Shown: positions 3,632-45,518 of the stretch, piece after piece
Layout of the letters: each line of letters begins with the position of its first letter
How positions within the stretch are numbered: position 1 is the stretch's first letter
Assembly (NCBI RefSeq): GCF_020630935.1
Contig: NZ_JAHDIG010000005.1
Span: forward strand, 64,001 to 113,529
Direction of reading: 5' to 3'
Length of the DNA stretch: 49,529 bases
Source of the DNA: Bernardetia sp.
GTDB lineage: Bacteria > Bacteroidota > Bacteroidia > Cytophagales > Bernardetiaceae
Made by a program: the position numbers and the translations under genes
The notes under the pieces: model-generated
Database searches by the model: none
Told to the model about the DNA's origin: nothing
The model's input: the letters and a program-made list of their open reading frames with translations, nothing else

Positions 3632-4429
3632 ATGTTTAGCACCGAATCCAATTCTTTTTATTCAGATTTAGACAAAATGTCTGTCAAAGAACTACTCACA
3701 AACATTAATACAGAAGATAAGAAAGTAGCCCTTGCTGTTGAAAAGGTTATTCCTCAAATAGAATCTTTAGTAATAGAAATAGTAGAGCGAATGAATACAG
3801 GAGGAAGACTTTTTTATATAGGTGCAGGAACAAGTGGTAGATTAGGAATTGTAGATGCTTCTGAATGCCCTCCAACGTTTGGTGTTTCGCATGGTTTGGT
3901 AGTGGGCATTATGGCAGGAGGAGATAAAGCCATACGCAAGGCTGTAGAGTTTGCTGAAGATGACAAAGAACAGGCTTGGAAAGATTTGTCTGAATATCAT
4001 CTCACTAAAAATGATACACTCATCGGAATTGCAGCCTCTGGAAGAACGCCTTATGTGGTAGGAGGATTAGAAGAAGCAAACAAAAACGGACTTCTGACAG
4101 GCTGTATTGTTTGTAATGAAGGTTCTGAAGTAGCACAAGCAAGTCAGTTTCCGATTGAAGTAATTGTAGGAGCAGAGTTTGTAACAGGCAGCACACGAAT
4201 GAAAGCAGGAACGGCTCAAAAATTAGTCTTGAATATGATTTCTACTTCAGTTATGATACAACTTGGCAGAGTAAAAGGCAACAAAATGGTAGATATGCAA
4301 CTCTCTAACCAAAAGCTCATTGAGAGAGGAACACGCTTTTTGAAAGAAGAACTCAACATTCCAGAAGAAGAAGCTAAAAAACTACTACTAAAATATGGAA
4401 GTGTGAGAGAAGTCTTGAATCAGTTTTGA
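3632..4429 (+). CDS. murQ: N-acetylmuramic acid 6-phosphate etherase
   Basis: 265 aa. SIS-domain motif GAGTSGRLG is present and the full-length pattern is typical of MurQ. Confidence 0.85.
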   Translation: MFSTESNSFYSDLDKMSVKELLTNINTEDKKVALAVEKVIPQIESLVIEIVERMNTGGRLFYIGAGTSGRLGIVDASECPPTFGVSHGLVVGIMAGGDKAIRKAVEFAEDDKEQAWKDLSEYHLTKNDTLIGIAASGRTPYVVGGLEEANKNGLLTGCIVCNEGSEVAQASQFPIEVIVGAEFVTGSTRMKAGTAQKLVLNMISTSVMIQLGRVKGNKMVDMQLSNQKLIERGTRFLKEELNIPEEEAKKLLLKYGSVREVLNQF

Positions 4430-5199
4430 ATCTTCCAAATTTTGGCAGCAGCTTCGGCTTGTCCATGAAGCATTTCTAAGCCGTGAATCGTTTTTGCACC
4501 TTTTTCTTTTCCTTTTTTTAGAAACTCAGTTTCTTCTGGATTATATACCAAATCGTACAGAAAATAGTTTTTATCAATTTTTGAATAATTTTCGCTGGAG
4601 AGTGGAGGAAAACTATCCATATTGGGGTACATTCCTAAAGGAGTGGTATTGATGATGAGTCTATATTGTTCAATTTCAATCTTTGAATAAGGAAAAGTTT
4701 TATAAGCAGAGTTGTCTTGAATTTCTTTTACAGAAGATGATGCAAAATCGAAAGAAATATTCAAATCTTCTAAGGCTATTTTTACTGCTTGTGCTGCGCC
4801 TCCTGTTCCTAAAACTAGAGCTTTCTTATCAAAAACAGTTTTAGAGCCAGTAAATAAAAAATTCTCTAAACTATTTTTGAAGCCAATATAATCTGTGTTA
4901 TAGCCTGTTGTTGTTCCATCTTCTTCTATTTTGATGGTGTTTACTGCTCCAATGCGCTTGGCTATTGGGTCTAGCTTGTCCAAAAATGGAATGACAGATT
5001 TTTTATAAGGAATAGTTACGTTTACTCCTCTAAGACTTACGTTTTCTCTTATTAGTTCTTCAAAATCTTCTATCTCTTCAAGTTCAAAAAGTTCATAGAC
5101 ATATCCATCTTCTTTTAAAAGACCAATTTTTTCAAATTTTTCTGTAAAGTATTTTTTAGAAAACGAGTGAGAGAGAGTTTTTCCAATAAGTCCGAACAT
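4420..5199 (-). CDS. aroE: Shikimate dehydrogenase
   Basis: 259 aa with LIGKTLSHSFS, GVNVTIPYK, GAVNTI, GYNTDYIG, LGTGGAAQA and NTTPLGM motifs. It overlaps the murQ 3' end convergently by 10 bp. Confidence 0.85.
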   Translation of the reverse strand: MFGLIGKTLSHSFSKKYFTEKFEKIGLLKEDGYVYELFELEEIEDFEELIRENVSLRGVNVTIPYKKSVIPFLDKLDPIAKRIGAVNTIKIEEDGTTTGYNTDYIGFKNSLENFLFTGSKTVFDKKALVLGTGGAAQAVKIALEDLNISFDFASSSVKEIQDNSAYKTFPYSKIEIEQYRLIINTTPLGMYPNMDSFPPLSSENYSKIDKNYFLYDLVYNPEETEFLKKGKEKGAKTIHGLEMLHGQAEAAAKIWKIQN

Positions 5200-5207
5200 A
5201 GCTTTTC

Positions 5208-5282
5208 AGTTTACAGTAAACAGTTATCAGTTACCAGTGCTAATTTTCTTGTTTACTGGTAACTGATAACTGCTAACTGATT
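5208..5282. repeat. Heptamer-repeat hairpin: (CAGTNNN)x5 at 5208-5242, 12-nt spacer, inverted (ACTGNTA)x4 at 5255-5282; contains a perfect 18-bp inverted repeat CAGTTATCAGTTACCAGT/ACTGGTAACTGATAACTG
   Basis: Read directly from the sequence. It lies between the aroE start and the tal stop, overlaps the tal stop codon, and probably serves as the tal terminator structure. Confidence 0.7.
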
Positions 5283-5938
5283 TACAGGTTTAATGATTTT
5301 GCATCTTCTAAGAATTTTGCAAGTCCTTTGTCTGTAAGTGGATGGTCTAAAAGACTCATAATTACATTGGCAGGACAAGTAACTACATCAGCACCTACTT
5401 CTGCACATTGCAAAAGGTGCATATTATGACGAATAGAAGCAGCTAAAATTTCTGTTTGGAAACCATAATTTCCAAAAATATCTACCATTTGTTCTATAAG
5501 TTCCATTCCATCTGCTCCTACATCATCTAGGCGACCAATGAAAGGAGAAACATACGTTGCACCTGCTTTGGCTGCCAAAATTGCTTGCCCAGCAGAAAAA
5601 ATAAGTGTACAGTTAGTACGAATGCCTTTTTCTGAAAAATATTTGATAGCACGAATGCCATCTTTTATCATCGGAACTTTCACAACAATTTTATTATCAA
5701 TTTCAGCAAGTTCTTCGCCTTCTCTGATAATATCTTTGTATTCTGTACTGATAACTTCTGCACTTACATTGTCATCTACAATATCACAGATGGCTTTGTA
5801 GTGGCTGAAAATAGCATTTTTACCAGTAATTCCTACTTTTGCCATAAGTGATGGGTTAGTAGTTACTCCATCTAAAACTCCTAATTCTTGACATTCTTTT
5901 ATTTCTTCAAGGTTGGCTGTATCTACGAAAAATTTCAT
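5282..5938 (-). CDS. tal: Transaldolase / fructose-6-phosphate aldolase family (short Tal-FSA type)
   Basis: 218 aa starting [15 protein letters not shown] with ..GVTTNPSL.., as in short transaldolases. Confidence 0.8.
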
Positions 5939-10195: not shown

Positions 10196-10223
10196 CATTC
10201 GTAATTCGTAATTCGTAATTGAT
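10196..10223. repeat. Tandem heptamer array (ACGAATT-type, minus orientation): CATTCGT AATTCGT AATTCGT AATTGAT, ending 3 nt before the hflX ATG
   Basis: Read directly from the sequence. It belongs to the same family as the arrays at 29853-29880 and 45411-45445. Confidence 0.7.
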
Positions 10224-10226
10224 TTT

Positions 10227-11462
10227 ATGCTAGAAACTCAAAATACAAAAGTAGAAACTGCCGTTTTGGTAGGAATTGTCAATCAAACACAAACATTACA
10301 AAAATCACAAGAATATTTAGATGAATTAGAATTTTTAGCCGAGACCTTAGGCATCAAAACCATAAAAAGGTTTACTCAAACGCTTGATACGCCTGACACA
10401 AGAACCTTTGTACGAACAGGAAAAATAGAGGAGATTAGGGAGTTTATGGAAACTAAAGAAGTAGATACCGTCATCTTTGATGATGAACTTTCTGCTCGCC
10501 ACGTCCGAAATATTGAAAAGGAATTTGAAGGAAAACAAGTTTTTGATAGGGCAACACTCATCTTAGAAATCTTTAGGCACAGGGCGCAAACTTCACAAGC
10601 CAAAACGCAAGTGGAATTGGCTCGTTATCAGTATCTTTTGCCTCGCCTTACCAATATGTGGACACACCTTTCTCGTCAGCGTGGTGGTATCGGACAGCGT
10701 GGTGCAGGGGAGAAGGAAATTGAAACCGACCGTCGTATTGTTAGAGACAGGATTACGCTTTTGAGAGAAAAACTTCAAAAGATAGAAAAACAAGCTGAAA
10801 CCCGTCGCAAACAGCGTAATAAAGTGGTGCGTGTTTCTCTTGTGGGTTATACCAATGTTGGGAAATCTACACTGATGCGTCTCTTGACAGGTTCGGATGT
10901 CTTTGCAGAAAACAAACTCTTTGCTACTGTCGATTCTACGGTACGTAAAGTTTTTTGGGATGGTATTCCATTTCTACTTTCCGATACAGTAGGTTTTATC
11001 CGTAAACTTCCGACGATGCTGATTGAGAGTTTTAAATCTACGTTGCAGGAAATTGTAGAGGCTGATGTTTTGATTCATGTAGTGGATATTTCACATCCTG
11101 CTTTCGAAGAGCATATTAAAGTAGTACAGGAAACACTCCAAGAGCTAGGAGCAACTGACAAACCGACGCTTTTAGTATTCAATAAAATTGATGCTTATAC
11201 GCACGATGTAAATGTAGGTCAGAATTATTTGGTTTGTCCTCCAACACTTGAAGAACTCAAAGATTCTTACTTGGCTTCTGATAAGAAAAATACAGTTTTT
11301 GTTTCTGCTCACAACAAGGAAAACATCGACGAACTCAAAGACAAACTCTTAGAACTAATTGCAGCTCGTCATTTTCAGATTTATCCAAATTATGTGCGTC
11401 CAAATTATTATGCCGAAGAATATAACCCAAAAGATTATGGTATAAATGAGGAGGAGGAATAG
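10227..11462 (+). CDS. hflX: GTPase HflX
   Basis: 411 aa with an HflX N-terminal domain, GYTNVGKST (G1), DTVGF (G3) and NKID (G4). Confidence 0.85.
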   Translation: MLETQNTKVETAVLVGIVNQTQTLQKSQEYLDELEFLAETLGIKTIKRFTQTLDTPDTRTFVRTGKIEEIREFMETKEVDTVIFDDELSARHVRNIEKEFEGKQVFDRATLILEIFRHRAQTSQAKTQVELARYQYLLPRLTNMWTHLSRQRGGIGQRGAGEKEIETDRRIVRDRITLLREKLQKIEKQAETRRKQRNKVVRVSLVGYTNVGKSTLMRLLTGSDVFAENKLFATVDSTVRKVFWDGIPFLLSDTVGFIRKLPTMLIESFKSTLQEIVEADVLIHVVDISHPAFEEHIKVVQETLQELGATDKPTLLVFNKIDAYTHDVNVGQNYLVCPPTLEELKDSYLASDKKNTVFVSAHNKENIDELKDKLLELIAARHFQIYPNYVRPNYYAEEYNPKDYGINEEEE

Positions 11463-22741: not shown

Positions 22742-22775
22742 AAAAGCCTTCCTGCACTGTGGGAAGGCTTTTTCT
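22742..22775. terminator. Bidirectional rho-independent terminator between recA and the convergent Omp85 gene (AAGCCTTCC...GGAAGGCTT with flanking A/T runs)
   Basis: 9-bp perfect stem with an A-run on its 5' side and a T-run on its 3' side. Confidence 0.65.
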
Positions 22776-25249
22776 TAGAAAGGATAGCCAATCGCAATAT
22801 TCAATACTAAATTATCTCTACGCCAATTCCTATCTCTAACATTGATTTGCTTTCTTACCCAACGTTCGTTTTCTGGAAGCCACGGCTTACTAAGAGGAAA
22901 AGCAACATCAAAACGAAGTACAAAAAAAGTAACATCAAGACGAAGTCCAGCACCCACACCCACAGCAATATCATCCAACAAGTCGTTAGGCTTAAATAAA
23001 CCTCCTTCACGGTTAGGGTCTTCTTTAACGAGCCAAACATTACCAGCATCAGCAAAAACAGCACCTTTGAAAACACTATAAATCGGAAAACGATATTCTA
23101 TATTTGCTTCCAAACGCATATCTCCTGTTTGGTCGTAGAAAAGCCCACTCGTACTGTCTTTGGTAATGTACGAACCTGGTCCGATAGAACGAGCTTGAAA
23201 GGCACGAATACTGTTTGCTCCTCCTGCAAAAAACTGCTTTGTATAGGGCAAAACACTTGCATTTGCATAAGGAAGTCCTACACCAGCAATAAAACGAGTA
23301 GCTATTTTGTGATGTGTTTCTTCATTGAAATTGAAATAATATCTAAAATCTATATCTGCACGAGCATATTGAGCATAAGGTTCGCTTAAAATAGTGTATG
23401 GATTTTCGCCAGTTGCTTTTCTTGAACTTAACAAACTTTGGATTCCATACGCTATATTTCCTCCTATGTCAATGTTTCCATTAAAGAAAATATGGTTTTT
23501 ATTTTTTCTAGTATTTTCATCTACTCCTGCTGCACTTTGATAAGTAAATGAGTAATTTCCTCCTAAAATAAACTGATTTTGAAAACTTCTTTGTAATAAT
23601 GGGTTGTCTCCAATAGCTTCATTAAAAAGACTTGTCGTATCCATTAAACGAACATAGTTGATAGAAATAGGATTGAAACGATGTGTTTTGGTTGCTGTTT
23701 CTTGCCATTGATAGCCAAATTGAGCTGTTGAAGAAAGCAAACGAAAATAATTTACCCTATTGAGCAGTCGTATATCTCCTTGATAGACTGTTTTGGGAAC
23801 ATACTCTTGTGCCAAGCGAGGAATTTTGATAGGAGTGATAAAACGAGGAACATAAACTTCTAATCCTGCCCCAATTTCATAGGAATATAATCCGTTTTGT
23901 TGGTTGGGTTGTTCAATGTTTTCATTTGCTGTCCGTCCACTAATTTGTGTTTCAAAACGTCCATCCAATCTGACTACTAAAAGCTCTGCACCACGAAAAG
24001 CATTTTTGTTTCTGTAACTTAGATTTAATCCCGGTCCTACAAAGTTATTGGATTTAGACACTACATCTAATTCTGCTCTAAATGATTTTCTTTTTGCAGG
24101 CACCATTTGTATATAGGCATCTAAGTAACCTTCATTACCCACAGAATCCACAGGTTTGTAACGAATATCAGCAAATTTTAAAGCTCCTAATCCCATCAGT
24201 TGTTTGAGAGTTTGCTCATGTCTTTGTGCTGAATAGAGCGAATCTGGTTCTAGGAAAATGGAACGAGCTAGTATTTCTGGACGAAACTGACAACCATCCA
24301 TCATACAATAAAAAGTAGAATCTCCTTCTAGTTTGCCTACTCTAGTTAATTTTTGAGGGTTGGCAAGTGATTCCATTCCCATTTCATAATTAGGAAATAA
24401 AAATACATTTCTAATTCGATACGGTTTGCGTGCAATGTCAGGCATTTTATCTTTTACTTGCATATACACATTCATTTGCCTGTCTCCTACGGTTGAATCT
24501 ACTTTATAAATCAAAAATTTATTGCTAAAATAAAAATAACCTCTTTCTTTTGCATAGTCGTTCATTCTTTCTCTTTCTTGTTCTAAGAGAGAGAAATTAT
24601 AAGGCTGATTTGTTTTCAACAGTGTTTCTTTCTGTGCATTATTCAGCACATTGCCTAAAGGGTCTGGTTCTTTTGGAAAATTAATAGAATCTAATCTATA
24701 AGGTTGATAAACGGTAGCTGTATAAACTATCTCTGCTTTTTTTCCCTTTTGTTTTACTTCGCTAGAAGTTTCTGCTTGAAAATGTCCGTTTACATAAAGT
24801 CTATTCAGAACAAGTTTGCTGACACGTTCTTCATTGATATCAGCCAACAAAACAGGAGGTTTCCCAATTTTTGTCATAACCCAATGTTTAAAACCTTTTT
24901 CTTTTTCTGTATAGAAAGTGTTATAAAAGGCAAGTTGGGGACGCATCCACAAAAATTTGCTATTGGGTTCTGGAGCTAAAACTTCTTCTGCTTCAGTTTT
25001 TACTCTTTTTTCTTCTGGAATATCTCCTTCCTTTTTATCCCATTTGATTTCACCTCCAGTGTAAAGAGGATTCTCCTTTGTGATTTTGCTAAGACCTGTA
25101 CAACCACTAAAAAAAATAAGCAAGCATAAAGTAGTGAAAATTGAGACAGAAAAATGATTTACGAAAGAGTTAAAAATGTTTCGCATTAGTAAGTTTGAGA
25201 ATGATGAAAAATAGAAAAGCAAAAAATAACGTTGCTCTTGTTTCAACAT
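22775..25249 (-). CDS. Omp85/BamA-family outer-membrane protein (BamA/TamA-like)
   Basis: 824 aa with a lipobox/signal ...FFSGC, a large periplasmic region, and a C-terminal beta-barrel ending ...AIGYPF. Confidence 0.55.
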   Translation of the reverse strand: MLKQEQRYFLLFYFSSFSNLLMRNIFNSFVNHFSVSIFTTLCLLIFFSGCTGLSKITKENPLYTGGEIKWDKKEGDIPEEKRVKTEAEEVLAPEPNSKFLWMRPQLAFYNTFYTEKEKGFKHWVMTKIGKPPVLLADINEERVSKLVLNRLYVNGHFQAETSSEVKQKGKKAEIVYTATVYQPYRLDSINFPKEPDPLGNVLNNAQKETLLKTNQPYNFSLLEQERERMNDYAKERGYFYFSNKFLIYKVDSTVGDRQMNVYMQVKDKMPDIARKPYRIRNVFLFPNYEMGMESLANPQKLTRVGKLEGDSTFYCMMDGCQFRPEILARSIFLEPDSLYSAQRHEQTLKQLMGLGALKFADIRYKPVDSVGNEGYLDAYIQMVPAKRKSFRAELDVVSKSNNFVGPGLNLSYRNKNAFRGAELLVVRLDGRFETQISGRTANENIEQPNQQNGLYSYEIGAGLEVYVPRFITPIKIPRLAQEYVPKTVYQGDIRLLNRVNYFRLLSSTAQFGYQWQETATKTHRFNPISINYVRLMDTTSLFNEAIGDNPLLQRSFQNQFILGGNYSFTYQSAAGVDENTRKNKNHIFFNGNIDIGGNIAYGIQSLLSSRKATGENPYTILSEPYAQYARADIDFRYYFNFNEETHHKIATRFIAGVGLPYANASVLPYTKQFFAGGANSIRAFQARSIGPGSYITKDSTSGLFYDQTGDMRLEANIEYRFPIYSVFKGAVFADAGNVWLVKEDPNREGGLFKPNDLLDDIAVGVGAGLRLDVTFFVLRFDVAFPLSKPWLPENERWVRKQINVRDRNWRRDNLVLNIAIGYPF

Positions 25250-25273: not shown

Positions 25274-25311
25274 ATAAAAAAAGAGAGTTCAGAATATCTA
25301 AACTCTCTTTT
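25274..25311 (-). terminator. Rho-independent terminator after the 25319..25705 gene (AAAGAGAGTT/AACTCTCTTT stem with a T-run on the minus strand)
   Basis: 10-bp stem with an adjacent A-run on the plus strand. Confidence 0.6.
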
Positions 25312-25318
25312 ATTAATT

Positions 25319-25705
25319 CTATTCTTCATTTGGATAAGGCACAAAAACAAAACGAGTAAACTGCTCATCTATCACAAAAAGACAGCAAAACTCCTCTGGG
25401 TTTTTGTAAGCAGCCTTAAAACGTTGGCTTCCTTCTTCATCTAAGATATTTCTCTGTTCAAACTCTTCTAAAAACGAAGCATAATAATCCCATTCAAGCT
25501 GTGGCATATCTGCTTTAGAAAATAAAATTTGTCCGATGGGCTGTGGGGCTTTACAGATAGGAAATACTGGATAATCTGAAAAACCTCTTTTCTTGATTTG
25601 ATAGGCAGCTTCTTTTAAGTTATCTGCAATCTTGACAAAGTTGGTAGTTAGTTTTCCTAAATATTTAAAATCTAGTTCTGCGTCGTTGTAGTCTTCTATT
25701 TCCAT
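25319..25705 (-). CDS. Hypothetical cytoplasmic protein
   Basis: 128 aa with no recognisable motif. Its 5' UTR carries a five-unit heptamer array. Confidence 0.5.
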   Translation of the reverse strand: MEIEDYNDAELDFKYLGKLTTNFVKIADNLKEAAYQIKKRGFSDYPVFPICKAPQPIGQILFSKADMPQLEWDYYASFLEEFEQRNILDEEGSQRFKAAYKNPEEFCCLFVIDEQFTRFVFVPYPNEE

Positions 25706-25710
25706 TTCTA

Positions 25711-25745
25711 ATCAGTTAGCAGTTACCAGTAATCAGTAACCAGTT
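25711..25745. repeat. Tandem heptamer array (NNNCAGT)x5: AATCAGT TAGCAGT TACCAGT AATCAGT AACCAGT
   Basis: Same CAGT-type family as the 5208-5282 hairpin. It begins 6 nt upstream of the start codon of the 25319..25705 gene, just after the M28 peptidase stop. Confidence 0.7.
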
Positions 25746-25754
25746 TATATTTTT

Positions 25755-27176
25755 TTAGCGAATAACTTCTCTTGGAAAGCTCACAATACTTTCGTGTCCG
25801 TTTTCATCTACGGCAGCTACTCCAAAGAGATAATTATCAATAACAATATTTTCAAGTACAAAGGTAATTTGTTCTTCTGTCTTTTCCTCATAAAATTCTT
25901 TAGGAACAAAACGAGCATATTGCCACTGTGGAGCAGTTGTTTCTCTCCAGTAGATTTTATAGCCAACGATAGTAGAATCTTCGTCTTTTAGTTTATCCCA
26001 AGAAAGTGTTGTGGAAGGCTGCACAGCACCACCAATTTTTACATTTTGAGGAGAAAGTGGCGACCAGCCTAAGTTTGCCAACACAATTGCATTGACAGCC
26101 GTAAGTTTATTGAGATACTCAAAATTGACTCCTTCTACTACATCGCCATATTTTATTCCATTTTCTTCTCTAATATCTTGGTGCTGACGGTTATAATTTT
26201 CGTGGCTTTCCATAATTCTGACACCAGCAAAACCTGCATCGTTAAAAGGTCGGTGGTGTCCTCCACGTCCAAATCTATCCAAACGATAAATCATTGTTGG
26301 ATTCATCTCTGGCATATATTTTTTTGTAGTAGAGTGAATATAACGGGCGAGCTGGCGAGAAATACCATCAATTTCGCCTCCGTAATAGCGTCTTCTATTT
26401 CTTTCTTTTTCGGTTTCTGTAACAGGCGTAGGCTCTGAGAAAATACGGAAACTTCTGTTATCAATCACGCCATCAATTCCTTCAATGTTTCCAATCATAT
26501 CATTATTTATCACTCCAATAATATCCCAACCATCTTTTTTTGCTTGTTCTGCCATAAACTTTCCTCCAAAAAGTCCTTGTTCTTCGCCTGAAAGTGCAGC
26601 AAAGGCAATGCTGTTTTTAAATTTATTTTTAGAATGAGATTTTGAAAGAACTCTTGCAGCCTCTAAAATTCCTGCTACACCTGTGGCATTATCATTCGCT
26701 CCAGGGGCATCAATCGTAAAATTAGTAACATCTGAAGCACGAGAATCTATATCTCCAGACATAATAGCATAACTATTTGGATTTTGAGTTCCCTTCAATA
26801 CAGCAATTACATTGACTACCCAAACATCTTTTATAATGCGTTGGTTTGCTCCTTTTTCTAATAAATTTCTTTGATAATAGACTTCTAAACAGCCATCACA
26901 GTCTTTTGATATTTTATCAAACTCTGCTTTTATCCATCTTCTAGCTGCTCCAATTCCACGAGTTTCAGAAATCGTATCTGAAAGCGTATGACGAGTGCCA
27001 AAATCGGCTAATTTTCTGACGTGGCTTTCTACATTTTCAGTAGAGATATTTTCTATGATATCATAGACTTTTGAGTCATATTCTGGGCTTGAAGTGGTAT
27101 TTTGAGCAAATAATGAAGTAGAAATGAATGTACAAAAAAATAGTATAGATAATAAAGGGAATTGGTAGAGTTTCAT
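25755..27176 (-). CDS. Secreted M28-family metallopeptidase (aminopeptidase) with a C-terminal Fn3-like domain
   Basis: 473 aa with a signal peptide, the M28 motifs SIAFAALSGEEQGLFG and NNDMIGN, and C-terminal ...YKIYWRETT. Confidence 0.75.
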   Translation of the reverse strand: MKLYQFPLLSILFFCTFISTSLFAQNTTSSPEYDSKVYDIIENISTENVESHVRKLADFGTRHTLSDTISETRGIGAARRWIKAEFDKISKDCDGCLEVYYQRNLLEKGANQRIIKDVWVVNVIAVLKGTQNPNSYAIMSGDIDSRASDVTNFTIDAPGANDNATGVAGILEAARVLSKSHSKNKFKNSIAFAALSGEEQGLFGGKFMAEQAKKDGWDIIGVINNDMIGNIEGIDGVIDNRSFRIFSEPTPVTETEKERNRRRYYGGEIDGISRQLARYIHSTTKKYMPEMNPTMIYRLDRFGRGGHHRPFNDAGFAGVRIMESHENYNRQHQDIREENGIKYGDVVEGVNFEYLNKLTAVNAIVLANLGWSPLSPQNVKIGGAVQPSTTLSWDKLKDEDSTIVGYKIYWRETTAPQWQYARFVPKEFYEEKTEEQITFVLENIVIDNYLFGVAAVDENGHESIVSFPREVIR

Positions 27177-28611: not shown

Positions 28612-28683
28612 AGCCAACGATGGGAATTGAACCCACGACCTCTTCCTTACCAAGGAAGCGCTCTACCCCTGAGCTACATCGGC
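28612..28683 (-). tRNA. tRNA-Thr (anticodon GGT)
   Basis: Cloverleaf read by hand: GCCGATGTAGCTCAGGGGTAGAGCGCTTCCTTGGTAAGGAAGAGGTCGTGGGTTCAATTCCCATCGTTGGCT. Both the T-arm GTGGG-TTCAATT-CCCAT and the acceptor stem GCCGATG/CGTTGGC require G-U wobble pairs, and the anticodon loop is CTTGGTAAG. Confidence 0.85.
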
Positions 28684-28835
28684 TTATAGCACTATACAAA
28701 CTTTCCATACTCTATTATCTTTATTTAAAATTTTGAAAATTTTAAAATCAGAACATAGTGAAAAGTTTGTATTCAATTAGTGTTATCTAATGCTGCTATA
28801 AAAAATACCAATAGTTACGTATCAGATTATATTTG

Positions 28836-28908
28836 AGCGAGAGACGAGGCTCGAACCCGCGACCTACAGCTTGGAAGGCTGTCGCTCTACCAACTGAGCT
28901 ACTCTCGC
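28836..28908 (-). tRNA. tRNA-Gly (anticodon TCC)
   Basis: GCGAGAGTAGCTCAGTTGGTAGAGC...anticodon loop CTTCCAA...TTCGAGC T-loop, acceptor stem GCGAGAG/CTCTCGC. Confidence 0.85.
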
Positions 28909-29016
28909 TTATTAATTTAGATTGAAATTAAAATTAATTTCAAAATTTGGTTTTGTTTGATATGAATCAAATATTTATTCCTAATGAATAAATGATAGTT
29001 TAATGAAAACTATTTG

Positions 29017-29099
29017 TGGGGGGAGCAGGATTCGAACCTGCGAAGAAATTAATCAACGGATTTACAGTCCGTCCCAGTTGGCCGCTTTGGTATCCCCCC
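29017..29099 (-). tRNA. tRNA-Tyr (anticodon GTA), long variable arm
   Basis: GGGGGGATACCAAAGCGGCCAACTGGGACGGACTGTAAATCCGT...GCAGGTTCGAATCCTGCTCCCCCCA; type II tRNA with an 83-nt length. Confidence 0.85.
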
Positions 29100-29852: not shown

Positions 29853-29880
29853 AATTACGAATTACGAATTACGAATTCTT
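29853..29880. repeat. Tandem heptamer array AATTACG AATTACG AATTACG AATTCTT
   Basis: Three perfect units plus one degenerate unit, between the secG start and the DUF1343 stop. Confidence 0.75.
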
Positions 29881-41312: not shown

Positions 41313-41341
41313 AACGTATTAATCTTCTAAAAAACAAAAAA

Positions 41342-41369
41342 AGCCATCCAAACTGGATAGCTTTTTTTA
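41342..41369. terminator. Bidirectional rho-independent terminator (AGCCATCCA-aact-TGGATAGCT + T7) shared by the cassette and convergent icd
   Basis: 9-bp stem with one mismatch, a T7 run downstream and an A-run upstream. Confidence 0.65.
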
Positions 41370-45415: not shown

Positions 45416-45445
45416 TTTAATTACGAATTATCAATTATAAATTAC
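45411..45445. repeat. Degenerate tandem heptamer array (NNAATTA)n: GCGTAAT TTAATTA CGAATTA TCAATTA TAAATTA CGAATTG
   Basis: It overlaps the acyl-CoA DH stop codon and belongs to the same AATTACG family as 10196-10223 and 29853-29880. Confidence 0.55.
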
Positions 45446-45470
45446 GAATTGATAGTTCATATACAATACA

Positions 45471-45518
45471 AAAGCCTTACAGATTTTCCTTTTTGGAATT
45501 TTTGTAAGGCTTTTTTAT
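45471..45518. terminator. Bidirectional terminator hairpin (AAAGCCTTACA...TGTAAGGCTTT with a nested TTCC/GGAA stem, flanked by A/T runs)
   Basis: 11-bp outer stem followed by T6 and preceded by an A-run, between the convergent acyl-CoA DH and 45569 genes. Confidence 0.6.

Follow-up and report, generated by a model that had tools for sequence, protein, structure and literature searches.

TAACTGA-type heptamer arrays in a Bernardetia genome: a conserved hairpin between tal and aroE and a near-invariant lone array in a gene leader

What kind of element is a long hairpin built of tandem heptamers, and what might it do between two genes? The question is raised by a 49.5-kb stretch of DNA from Bernardetia sp. 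(contig NZ_JAHDIG010000005.1, positions 64,001 to 113,529), hereafter the window, in which the spacer between tal and the aroE-like gene (hereafter aroE) holds two facing arrays of seven-base units with a CAGT/ACTG core, and in which a third array of the same type stands before the gene for a conserved 128-aa protein (Table 1). An initial annotation, made from the sequence without database searches, took the first of these loci for the terminator of tal and suggested that the family could be a modular RNA or DNA element or a protein-binding array. The follow-up leads elsewhere on the first point. The arrays very probably belong to the TAACTGA-type (ACTG/CAGT-core) heptamer repeats described by MacGregor in 2015, and the joint reading that they are members of this family and serve as a selected RNA-level element, not as a terminator, is the one favoured on balance.

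Table 1. Positions of the arrays, the predicted hairpin and the neighbouring genes in the window
Feature	Positions	Strand	Basis
Reverse-orientation array, which forms the 5' arm of the mRNA hairpin	5255..5282	-	Period-7 call and arm complementarity
A-rich 16-nt hairpin loop, minus strand AAACAAGAAAATTAGC	5239..5254	-	RNA fold
Forward-orientation array, which forms the 3' arm of the mRNA hairpin	5207..5238	-	Period-7 call and fold
Predicted intercistronic RNA hairpin, no U-tract	5214..5279	-	Fold and conservation with compensatory changes
Lone forward array, no inverted partner	25712..25745	-	Period-7 call; near-invariance in four species
tal/fsa, 218 aa, TAL_FSA; stop codon 5282-5284	5282..5938	-	Open reading frame and Pfam
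Shikimate dehydrogenase family gene (aroE-like), 259 aa; ATG 5197-5199	4420..5199	-	Open reading frame and protein comparison
M28 peptidase gene; stop 9 nt upstream of the lone array on the mRNA	25755..27176	-	Open reading frame and Pfam
128-aa conserved hypothetical protein gene, no Pfam domain	25319..25705	-	Open reading frame and homologues
824-aa open reading frame downstream of the 128-aa gene; orthologues with Omp85/POTRA domains (BamA-like)	22775-25249		

The window contains two heptamer loci with three arrays, to all of which Tandem Repeats Finder assigned a period of 7, and every gene flanking them lies on the minus strand. On the plus strand, positions 5207-5238 read CAGTTTA CAGTAAA CAGTTAT CAGTTAC CAGT and positions 5255-5282 read ACTGGTA ACTGATA ACTGCTA ACTGATT, the latter containing TAACTGA TAACTGC TAACTGA; the five CAGTNNN units opposite four ACTGNTA units are therefore as first described, with the start moved from 5208 to 5207. 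Read as mRNA, the reverse array (A TCAGTTA GCAGTTA TCAGTTA CCAGT) sets in 1 nt past the tal stop, and the forward array (ACTGG TAACTGA TAACTGT TTACTGT AAACTG-A) is followed by AAAGCT and then by the aroE ATG. Complementarity between the arms 5214-5238 and 5255-5279 is 92%, and the perfect inverted repeat that had been noted is made up of their inner 18 bp. The lone array, first placed at 25711-25745 and found at 25712-25745, reads TCAGTTA GCAGTTA CCAGTAA TCAGTAA CCAGTT on the plus strand and AACTGG TTACTGA TTACTGG TAACTGC TAACTGA on the mRNA, where TTAGAA and the ATG of the 128-aa reading frame come next; it indeed lies in the 5' leader of that gene, 6 nt before the ATG and 9 nt past the M28 peptidase stop.

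The three-unit CAGT-N3 pattern CAGTNNNCAGTNNNCAGT has 8 matches in the window against 0.00 expected (100 dinucleotide-preserving shuffles), and ACTG-N3-ACTG doublets are absent from the window outside the three arrays. Arrays of at least three units were likewise absent from the tal neighbourhoods of 79 other Cytophagales, 1.37 Mb in all; an outside control of 0.76 Mb of metagenomic Bacteroidota loci contained 2. The ACTG core is intact in 14/14 units, and positions 5 and 7 vary. The four-base core and position 6 are conserved, and the units keep a strict spacing of 7 bp. As mRNA, the two forward arrays read ACTGNTW and the reverse array reads NNNCAGT.

Repeats of this description have a precedent in the same genus. 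TAACTGA repeats are known from Beggiatoaceae, 15 Cyanobacteria and 5 Bacteroidetes, including Flexibacter litoralis DSM 6794, which is now Bernardetia litoralis (MacGregor 2015, Front Microbiol 6:1397; PMC4679880). The 'Maribeggiatoa' (BOGUAY) genome contains ~170 (169-170) sets, mostly forward; 147 of the 170 point at a start codon, in most cases with only a few nt in between, and the start codons associated with forward sets have no ribosome-binding site (PMC4679880). In F. litoralis DSM 6794, 12 of 14 sets are forward and lie 1-43 nt before a start codon (PMC4679880), as in the spacers ...TTACTGATTACTGGTAAT TGATAACTGATAACTGA and ...ATTACTGATTACTGGTAAT TGATAACTGATAACTGA, and one reverse set of seven directly follows a stop, TAA-(TCAGTTA)7, at Fleli_3883 (PMC4679880 Suppl. 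Table 5).

The window arrays show the same traits. Each comprises 4-5 tandem ACTG/CAGT cores at strict 7-nt spacing, where the family definition asks for at least two; both forward sets stop 6 nt short of a start codon, with no GGAGG-like motif in between (ACTGA-AAAGCT-ATG; ACTGA-TTAGAA-ATG) and hence no Shine-Dalgarno (SD) sequence; and a reverse set follows the tal stop (TAA-A-TCAGTTA GCAGTTA TCAGTTA CCAGT). The taxonomic range fits as well, given the lack of arrays in the 79 other Cytophagales loci and a protein search in which the window aroE product was 100% identical to an NCBI 'Bernardetia sp.' protein and 74-78% identical to its homologues in B. litoralis and three other Bernardetia. 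Because the unit mixtures and placements match and the genus is Bernardetia, the arrays are a further instance of the described family, in the genus of its original description, and not a new kind of element. They share with MacGregor's repeats the heptamer with one-base variants, the forward and reverse placement, the mixed 'split' units and the want of a demonstrated function. Exact TAACTGA accounts for 4/14 window units, the remainder being 1-2 bases off, so that the units here are more degenerate than TAACTGA and follow ACTG-N-T-W. Two further differences stand out: inverted pairing into a hairpin, present here, was seen once among the 170 BOGUAY sets and is unreported for F. litoralis, and the conservation and covariation across species analysed here lie outside the scope of PMC4679880. 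The initial proposal, a protein-binding array or a modular RNA element, agrees with that literature, in which recognition by S1, Csp or CsrA-like proteins has been proposed (MacGregor, PMC4679880). The outcome named at the outset as a refutation, no further copies and ordinary terminators at orthologous loci, did not come about: the family is on record for another Bernardetia species, and heptamer-array hairpins occupy the orthologous tal-aroE spacers.

Does the hairpin terminate transcription past tal? The minus-strand RNA of 5190-5295 is predicted to fold with 24 pairs, 20 of them consecutive, at -37.1 kcal/mol (z = -6.46, with 0/200 shuffles equally stable); the hairpin that had been read from the letters is thus real, as is the membership of all arrays in one repeat family. 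Its foot lies 2 nt past the tal stop, and pairing of the aroE leader extends up to 14 nt from the ATG. The initial annotation had the repeat overlap the tal stop: the array does touch it with one base, at 5282, whereas the predicted stem (5214-5279) excludes the stop codon. A Rho-independent terminator of tal, in which the inverted arrays would fold in the nascent RNA and release polymerase past the gene, would resemble this hairpin in its high stability and its onset a few bases past the stop codon. Intrinsic terminators, however, combine a G+C-rich stem with an immediate run of U, and here the 24-bp stem is AT-rich, in a spacer of 32% G+C, and is followed not by a U-tract but by AAAAGCT and the aroE ATG, with the next start codon at most 14 nt from the stem. 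A terminator scan made no call at tal-aroE, and ordinary hairpins elsewhere in the window (45466-45518, 41336-41368 and 25275-25315) are flanked by A- and T-tracts. Moreover, the adjacency of tal and aroE and the spacer-filling hairpin are kept in six genomes, as expected of an operon, and the same repeat family occurs at 25712-25745 without a partner; since that array has a single orientation and its leader no structure beyond that of shuffles (z = -0.01), it is no terminator. A terminator role at tal is thus very unlikely, and the locus corrects a habit of annotation: a strong hairpin past a stop codon need not be a terminator.

The order tal then aroE is kept in 1/80 GTDB relatives, a metagenome-assembled genome (MAG, L122), and in four named Bernardetia genomes, and because the adjacency is confined to the Bernardetia clade the comparison is limited to it: the window, B. 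litoralis, ABR2-2B, Wsw4-3y2, OM2101 and MAG L122. An inverted heptamer-array pair fills the spacer in 6/6 genomes, in place of ordinary terminators, although its units differ, being CAGTTAN/ACTGNTW in the window, TTAGTGA/TCACTAA in B. litoralis, ABR2-2B, Wsw4-3y2 and OM2101, and GGGAATT-like in MAG L122. Predicted hairpin energies range from -25.6 to -34.5 kcal/mol (z -3.4 to -7.9), and in all six folds, as read, 2-11 nt separate the tal stop from the stem and 5-14 nt lie between the stem and the aroE ATG. Five of the spacers could be aligned, giving 23 pairs with 87.8% of cells paired; six pairs had changed on both sides, as opposed to 0-1 in slid-partner controls, and the covariation score was reached by 0/500 shuffles. 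The hairpin has thus been kept across the genus though the unit sequence was replaced, which goes beyond the published description. Genome-wide concerted evolution with one heptamer family per genome was also considered and rejected, for one MAG (L122/L292) has GGGAATT-type units at tal-aroE and ACTG-type units at the 25712-25745 locus. In the same closest GTDB relative, inverted GGGAATT/GGAAATG-like arrays occupy two spacers (L122, 7562-7687 and 10664-10805; Tandem Repeats Finder periods 14 and 21), with units similar to those of the G-rich GGGAATC family known from Xanthomonas and Nostoc.

The same comparison bears on a mobile origin. If two inverted repeats had been moved as a unit by a transposase encoded elsewhere, the result would resemble a REPIN or a MITE, with two inverted arms in an intergenic spacer (PMC3116915, PMC3337134), and short-read contigs do break at the arrays, as they do at multi-copy repeats. 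Yet the hairpin sits at one orthologous position in six genomes and is alignable in five, which points to inheritance and not to new insertion; the arms are internally periodic, not a unique palindrome; the 49.5 kb contain just two loci and the relatives' 20-kb neighbourhoods none; and no target duplication was seen. We regard this origin as extremely unlikely. As for the contig breaks, Logan short-read contigs of sample SRR27418455 (L001, end 4975; L202, start 1) are broken exactly at both arrays, and exact-sequence look-ups of tal and the 128-aa protein on Logan returned only short contigs broken at the arrays; contig L203 of SRR14415275 spans the second array intact. Such breaks are compatible with many dispersed sets in the genome, and are suggestive only.

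The lone array provides a second and independent kind of evidence. Orthologous spacers between the M28 and 128-aa genes share it in four species (the window, Bernardetia sp. OM2101 and two MAGs). Here 1/34 array columns vary, compared with 17/30 third-codon positions of the adjacent gene (Fisher p = 1.8e-6); 4/6 positions of the linker between array and ATG are variable, and the remaining upstream spacer is unalignable. A second sequencing sample carries the identical five units, so that the variation in unit number for which the initial annotation suggested looking was seen neither between the two samples nor among the four species. On this sequence comparison the array is under purifying selection at the nucleotide level with a constant number of units, which argues against a hypermutable or neutral repeat. 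The near-invariance of one forward array while neighbouring synonymous sites and spacer diverge again extends the published description, and both conservation results speak for a function of at least some arrays, as opposed to debris left by slippage.

How general are these arrangements? When IMG/VR was scanned for runs of five CAGT cores spaced 7 nt apart, at least 120 contigs, of 34-74% G+C, matched. Among the contigs listed, neighbouring arrays at most 150 nt apart were arranged as CAGT...ACTG in 81 cases (29 contigs) and as ACTG...CAGT in 1; both inverted arrangements would be equally stable as hairpins, so that hairpin stability would not account for the 81:1 asymmetry. For 309 arrays on these contigs, a gene boundary lay within 30 nt on the ACTG-3' side in 194 cases and on the other side in 47; position 6 of the unit was a pyrimidine in 86% of the units listed, and AAA followed 27% of the CAGT arrays listed. 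One contig (L047, 1000-1140) repeats the layout of tal-aroE, stop-(NNNCAGT)5-loop-(ACTGNNN)5-SD-ATG. CAGT-core arrays are extremely dense, with up to 12 five-unit matches per 7 kb, on five contigs of 57-62% G+C (L039, L047, L067, L078 and L113), of which L047 also contains, at 5212-5401, a 50-57-nt super-repeat (GATCAGT GATCAGT GGCCAGT GATCAGT AAAGGCAAAGGCAAAAGAAAGT); for the array-rich contigs of ~60% G+C, tblastn gave no phage match, and there was almost no Pfam match.

A hairpin built of heptamers, held at first to be unusual, is consequently not so: besides the 81 convergent pairs among the contigs listed, ~70 convergent inverted heptamer pairs occur per Xanthomonas genome (PMC4692102). 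Those arrays, (GGGANTN)n or GGGAATC, are found in Xanthomonas and Nostoc, and positions 1-4 and 6 of their units are constant (Rehm et al. 2015, PMC4692102); they are intergenic and transcribed, and no function was found for them (PMC4692102). Like the window arrays, they consist of varied heptamers that agree at positions 1-4 and 6, form convergent pairs, and place one strand past stops and its complement before starts. Unlike them, they have a G-rich core that forms G-quadruplexes, and the phyla differ; the window units have a single core G or C and no G-runs, so that the four or more G-tracts of a quadruplex are lacking. The relative L122 has GGGAATT-like units in its tal-aroE spacer. Calothrix heptanucleotides are mentioned in the same paper (PMC4692102).

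Cyanobacteria offer another parallel. Mazel et al. are said to have described in 1990 the STRR heptamers CCCCAGT, CAACAGT and TTGGTCA, which are likewise tandem and intergenic and two of which share the CAGT core; they differ in their G/C-rich variable triplets, phylum and long arrays, and have served mainly as fingerprinting targets. Tandem heptamer arrays have thus been known in bacteria since about 1990, and to our knowledge no function has ever been shown for them.

Might the arrays then be functionless simple-sequence repeats, slippage-favoured heptamers drifting in permissive spacers with the hairpin incidental? Heptamers are the most over-represented class of long simple-sequence repeats in many bacteria, a bias attributed to slippage by Mrazek (2007), as cited in PMC4679880 and PMC4692102. 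Tandem repeats in the window most often have a period of 7; between species, the arrays ahead of hflX and fur have been gained or lost; and a single spacer has carried three unit types. Set against this are the 25712-25745 array, with its 1/34 as opposed to 17/30 variable positions and its constant unit number in four species and two samples, and the hairpin kept with compensatory changes; moreover, the 81:1 polarity among the contigs listed and core-specific conservation are not what slippage followed by neutral decay would lead one to expect. Slippage is probably the source of the arrays, yet it fails to explain selection at both loci, and we consider the absence of function unlikely.

Selection could instead act on DNA, if the array were operator-like, bound by a protein with a 7-bp register, or a cruciform site. 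A four-base core and position 6 conserved at strict 7-bp spacing would suit such a protein, and so would the preference for convergent over divergent orientation among the contigs listed. The omega repressor binds heptad arrays, and the convergent preference resembles such binding. In Nostoc reporters, deletion of other heptamer arrays altered promoter regulation (bioRxiv 10.1101/2022.06.06.494920). The orientation towards nearby start codons of 147/170 BOGUAY sets and of the window arrays fits an RNA-level reading, and the stop-to-start gaps, 82 nt between tal and aroE and 49 nt between the M28 and 128-aa genes, leave little room for a promoter. The Bacteroidetes promoter consensus is TAnnTTTG; no match was noticed when the tal-aroE spacer was read by eye. 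No binding protein is known, and a DNA-level element is distinctly improbable.

The reading preferred here, in which the arrays are elements of the mRNA, gives them a cis-acting role at translation-initiation regions, as their placement suggests. Bacteroidetes do without SD use, and the structure of the mRNA close to the start codon tunes their initiation (PMC6847099). The lone array would act through its sequence, either as a 5' leader platform for the 30S subunit and protein S1 or as a site for a single-strand RNA-binding protein; a sequence that is conserved though unstructured suggests that a protein or the ribosome recognises it. At tal-aroE, the reverse and forward arrays would pair into a 24-bp intercistronic hairpin that gates aroE translation, because a stem of -26 to -37 kcal/mol reaching 5-14 nt from the ATG should block independent initiation. 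A ribosome at a stop codon covers nearby downstream mRNA within its footprint. As the stem foot falls within the footprint of a ribosome at the tal stop, and independent initiation should be blocked, translational coupling, in which the ribosome terminating on tal melts the stem, is the most economical model. Alternatively, RNase III may cut the long duplex, or the stem may mark a processing site. A perfect duplex of at least 20 bp is a plausible RNase III substrate; a cut would release the leader of aroE, and a protective stem would stay behind at the tal 3' end. Protection of that end could also be a secondary effect of the hairpin. Any specific coupling or processing mechanism at tal-aroE is put forward tentatively. 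The arrays themselves would arise and switch unit type by replication slippage, with selection then keeping particular ones.

The REP elements of proteobacteria have roles in mRNA stability and translation, and serve as a working model of the effects that an intercistronic hairpin can have. Like the arrays at tal-aroE, they are inverted repeats that fold into stem-loops in intergenic spacers; they do so between co-transcribed genes, often near stops (PMC3116915). They differ in being unique palindromes with a conserved head, mobilised by RAYTs and present in hundreds of copies, whereas the window arms are tandem heptamers at a stable orthologous site with no known transposase.

Several points weigh against the RNA-level reading. 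In high-GC IMG/VR contigs an SD can sit between array and ATG, so the arrays are not SD substitutes everywhere. In the high-GC contigs listed, complementarity at the variable positions is 0.46 between partner arms and 0.58 between non-partner arms; because partners are no more complementary than non-partners, perfect pairing is no general property of the family, and the idea that partner arms are always selected for it finds no support in IMG/VR. The covariation at tal-aroE is based on only five sequences, the spacer has three different unit types among its six genomes, and templated repair can keep a DNA palindrome complementary in the absence of RNA-level selection. Nor is there support for selection on the forward array at 25712-25745 to be unstructured (z = -0.01). 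Some other heptamer arrays come and go: neither the ATTCGTA array ahead of hflX nor those ahead of fur are kept from one species to the next. The co-transcription of tal and aroE, finally, is suggested by just the short spacer and the synteny. We know of no trans-acting factor for the arrays.

A more far-reaching scheme would make the arrays a polar cis-regulatory code shared across phyla, in which ACUG arrays mark 5' leaders and CAGU arrays 3' trailers, both read by a single-strand RNA-binding factor of 7-nt register, dedicated or ribosome-associated, and complementary types pair in cis or in trans. Pairing in cis would form intercistronic hairpins that couple the translation of neighbouring genes, as at tal-aroE; pairing in trans would link different mRNAs, for which the window would offer one example, namely the tal trailer and the leader of the 128-aa gene. 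If true, the scheme would amount to a layer of SD-independent translational control in Bacteroidota, Cyanobacteria and Beggiatoaceae, although we hold it to be improbable. B. litoralis DSM 6794 is cultured and has a complete genome, which makes the function of heptamer repeats directly testable.

The tal trailer array at 5255-5281 (mRNA AAUCAGUUAGCAGUUA) has a 16-nt perfect complement to part of the leader of the 128-aa gene at 25712-25732 (UAACUGCUAACUGAUU). Membership in a shared repeat family alone may account for this match. Relatives with other unit types at tal-aroE lack the complementarity.

Beyond the ACTG/CAGT arrays, the window contains a second heptamer family, AATTACG (reverse complement ATTCGTA), at 10197-10220, 29853-29877 and 45419-45450, which follows the same polarity rule. 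ATTCGTA x3 stops 6 nt short of the hflX ATG at 10227, and AATTACG-type units set in 3 nt past the stop of an acyl-CoA dehydrogenase gene (gene end 45415). The hflX array is absent in B. litoralis and L122; B. litoralis spacers also open with 'TAA ATTACGA...' (PMC4679880 Suppl. Table 5). In one MAG (ERZ25039505 contig_18598; L292, 2378-2410), (ATTACGG)4 directly follows the M28 stop, and the conserved ACTG array lies further downstream within that spacer. In Bernardetia sp. OM2101 (L289, 8993-9025), a perfect (GGAAATG)4.7, CATTTCC on the mRNA, adjoins the fur start codon, and the fur leader of other species retains degenerate traces only.

As for the genes around the arrays, a metagenome scan with aroE returned no close relatives, the best match being 53% identical. 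A search of the window against Rfam 15 gave only sub-threshold matches to generic hairpins at both array loci; three tRNAs alone reached the gathering score, and their genes lie on the minus strand at 28612-29099. The 128-aa protein has 441 homologues (E <= 1e-10) across Cytophagales, and in 4/4 genomes examined its gene stands between the M28 peptidase gene and the BamA-like (Omp85/POTRA) gene.

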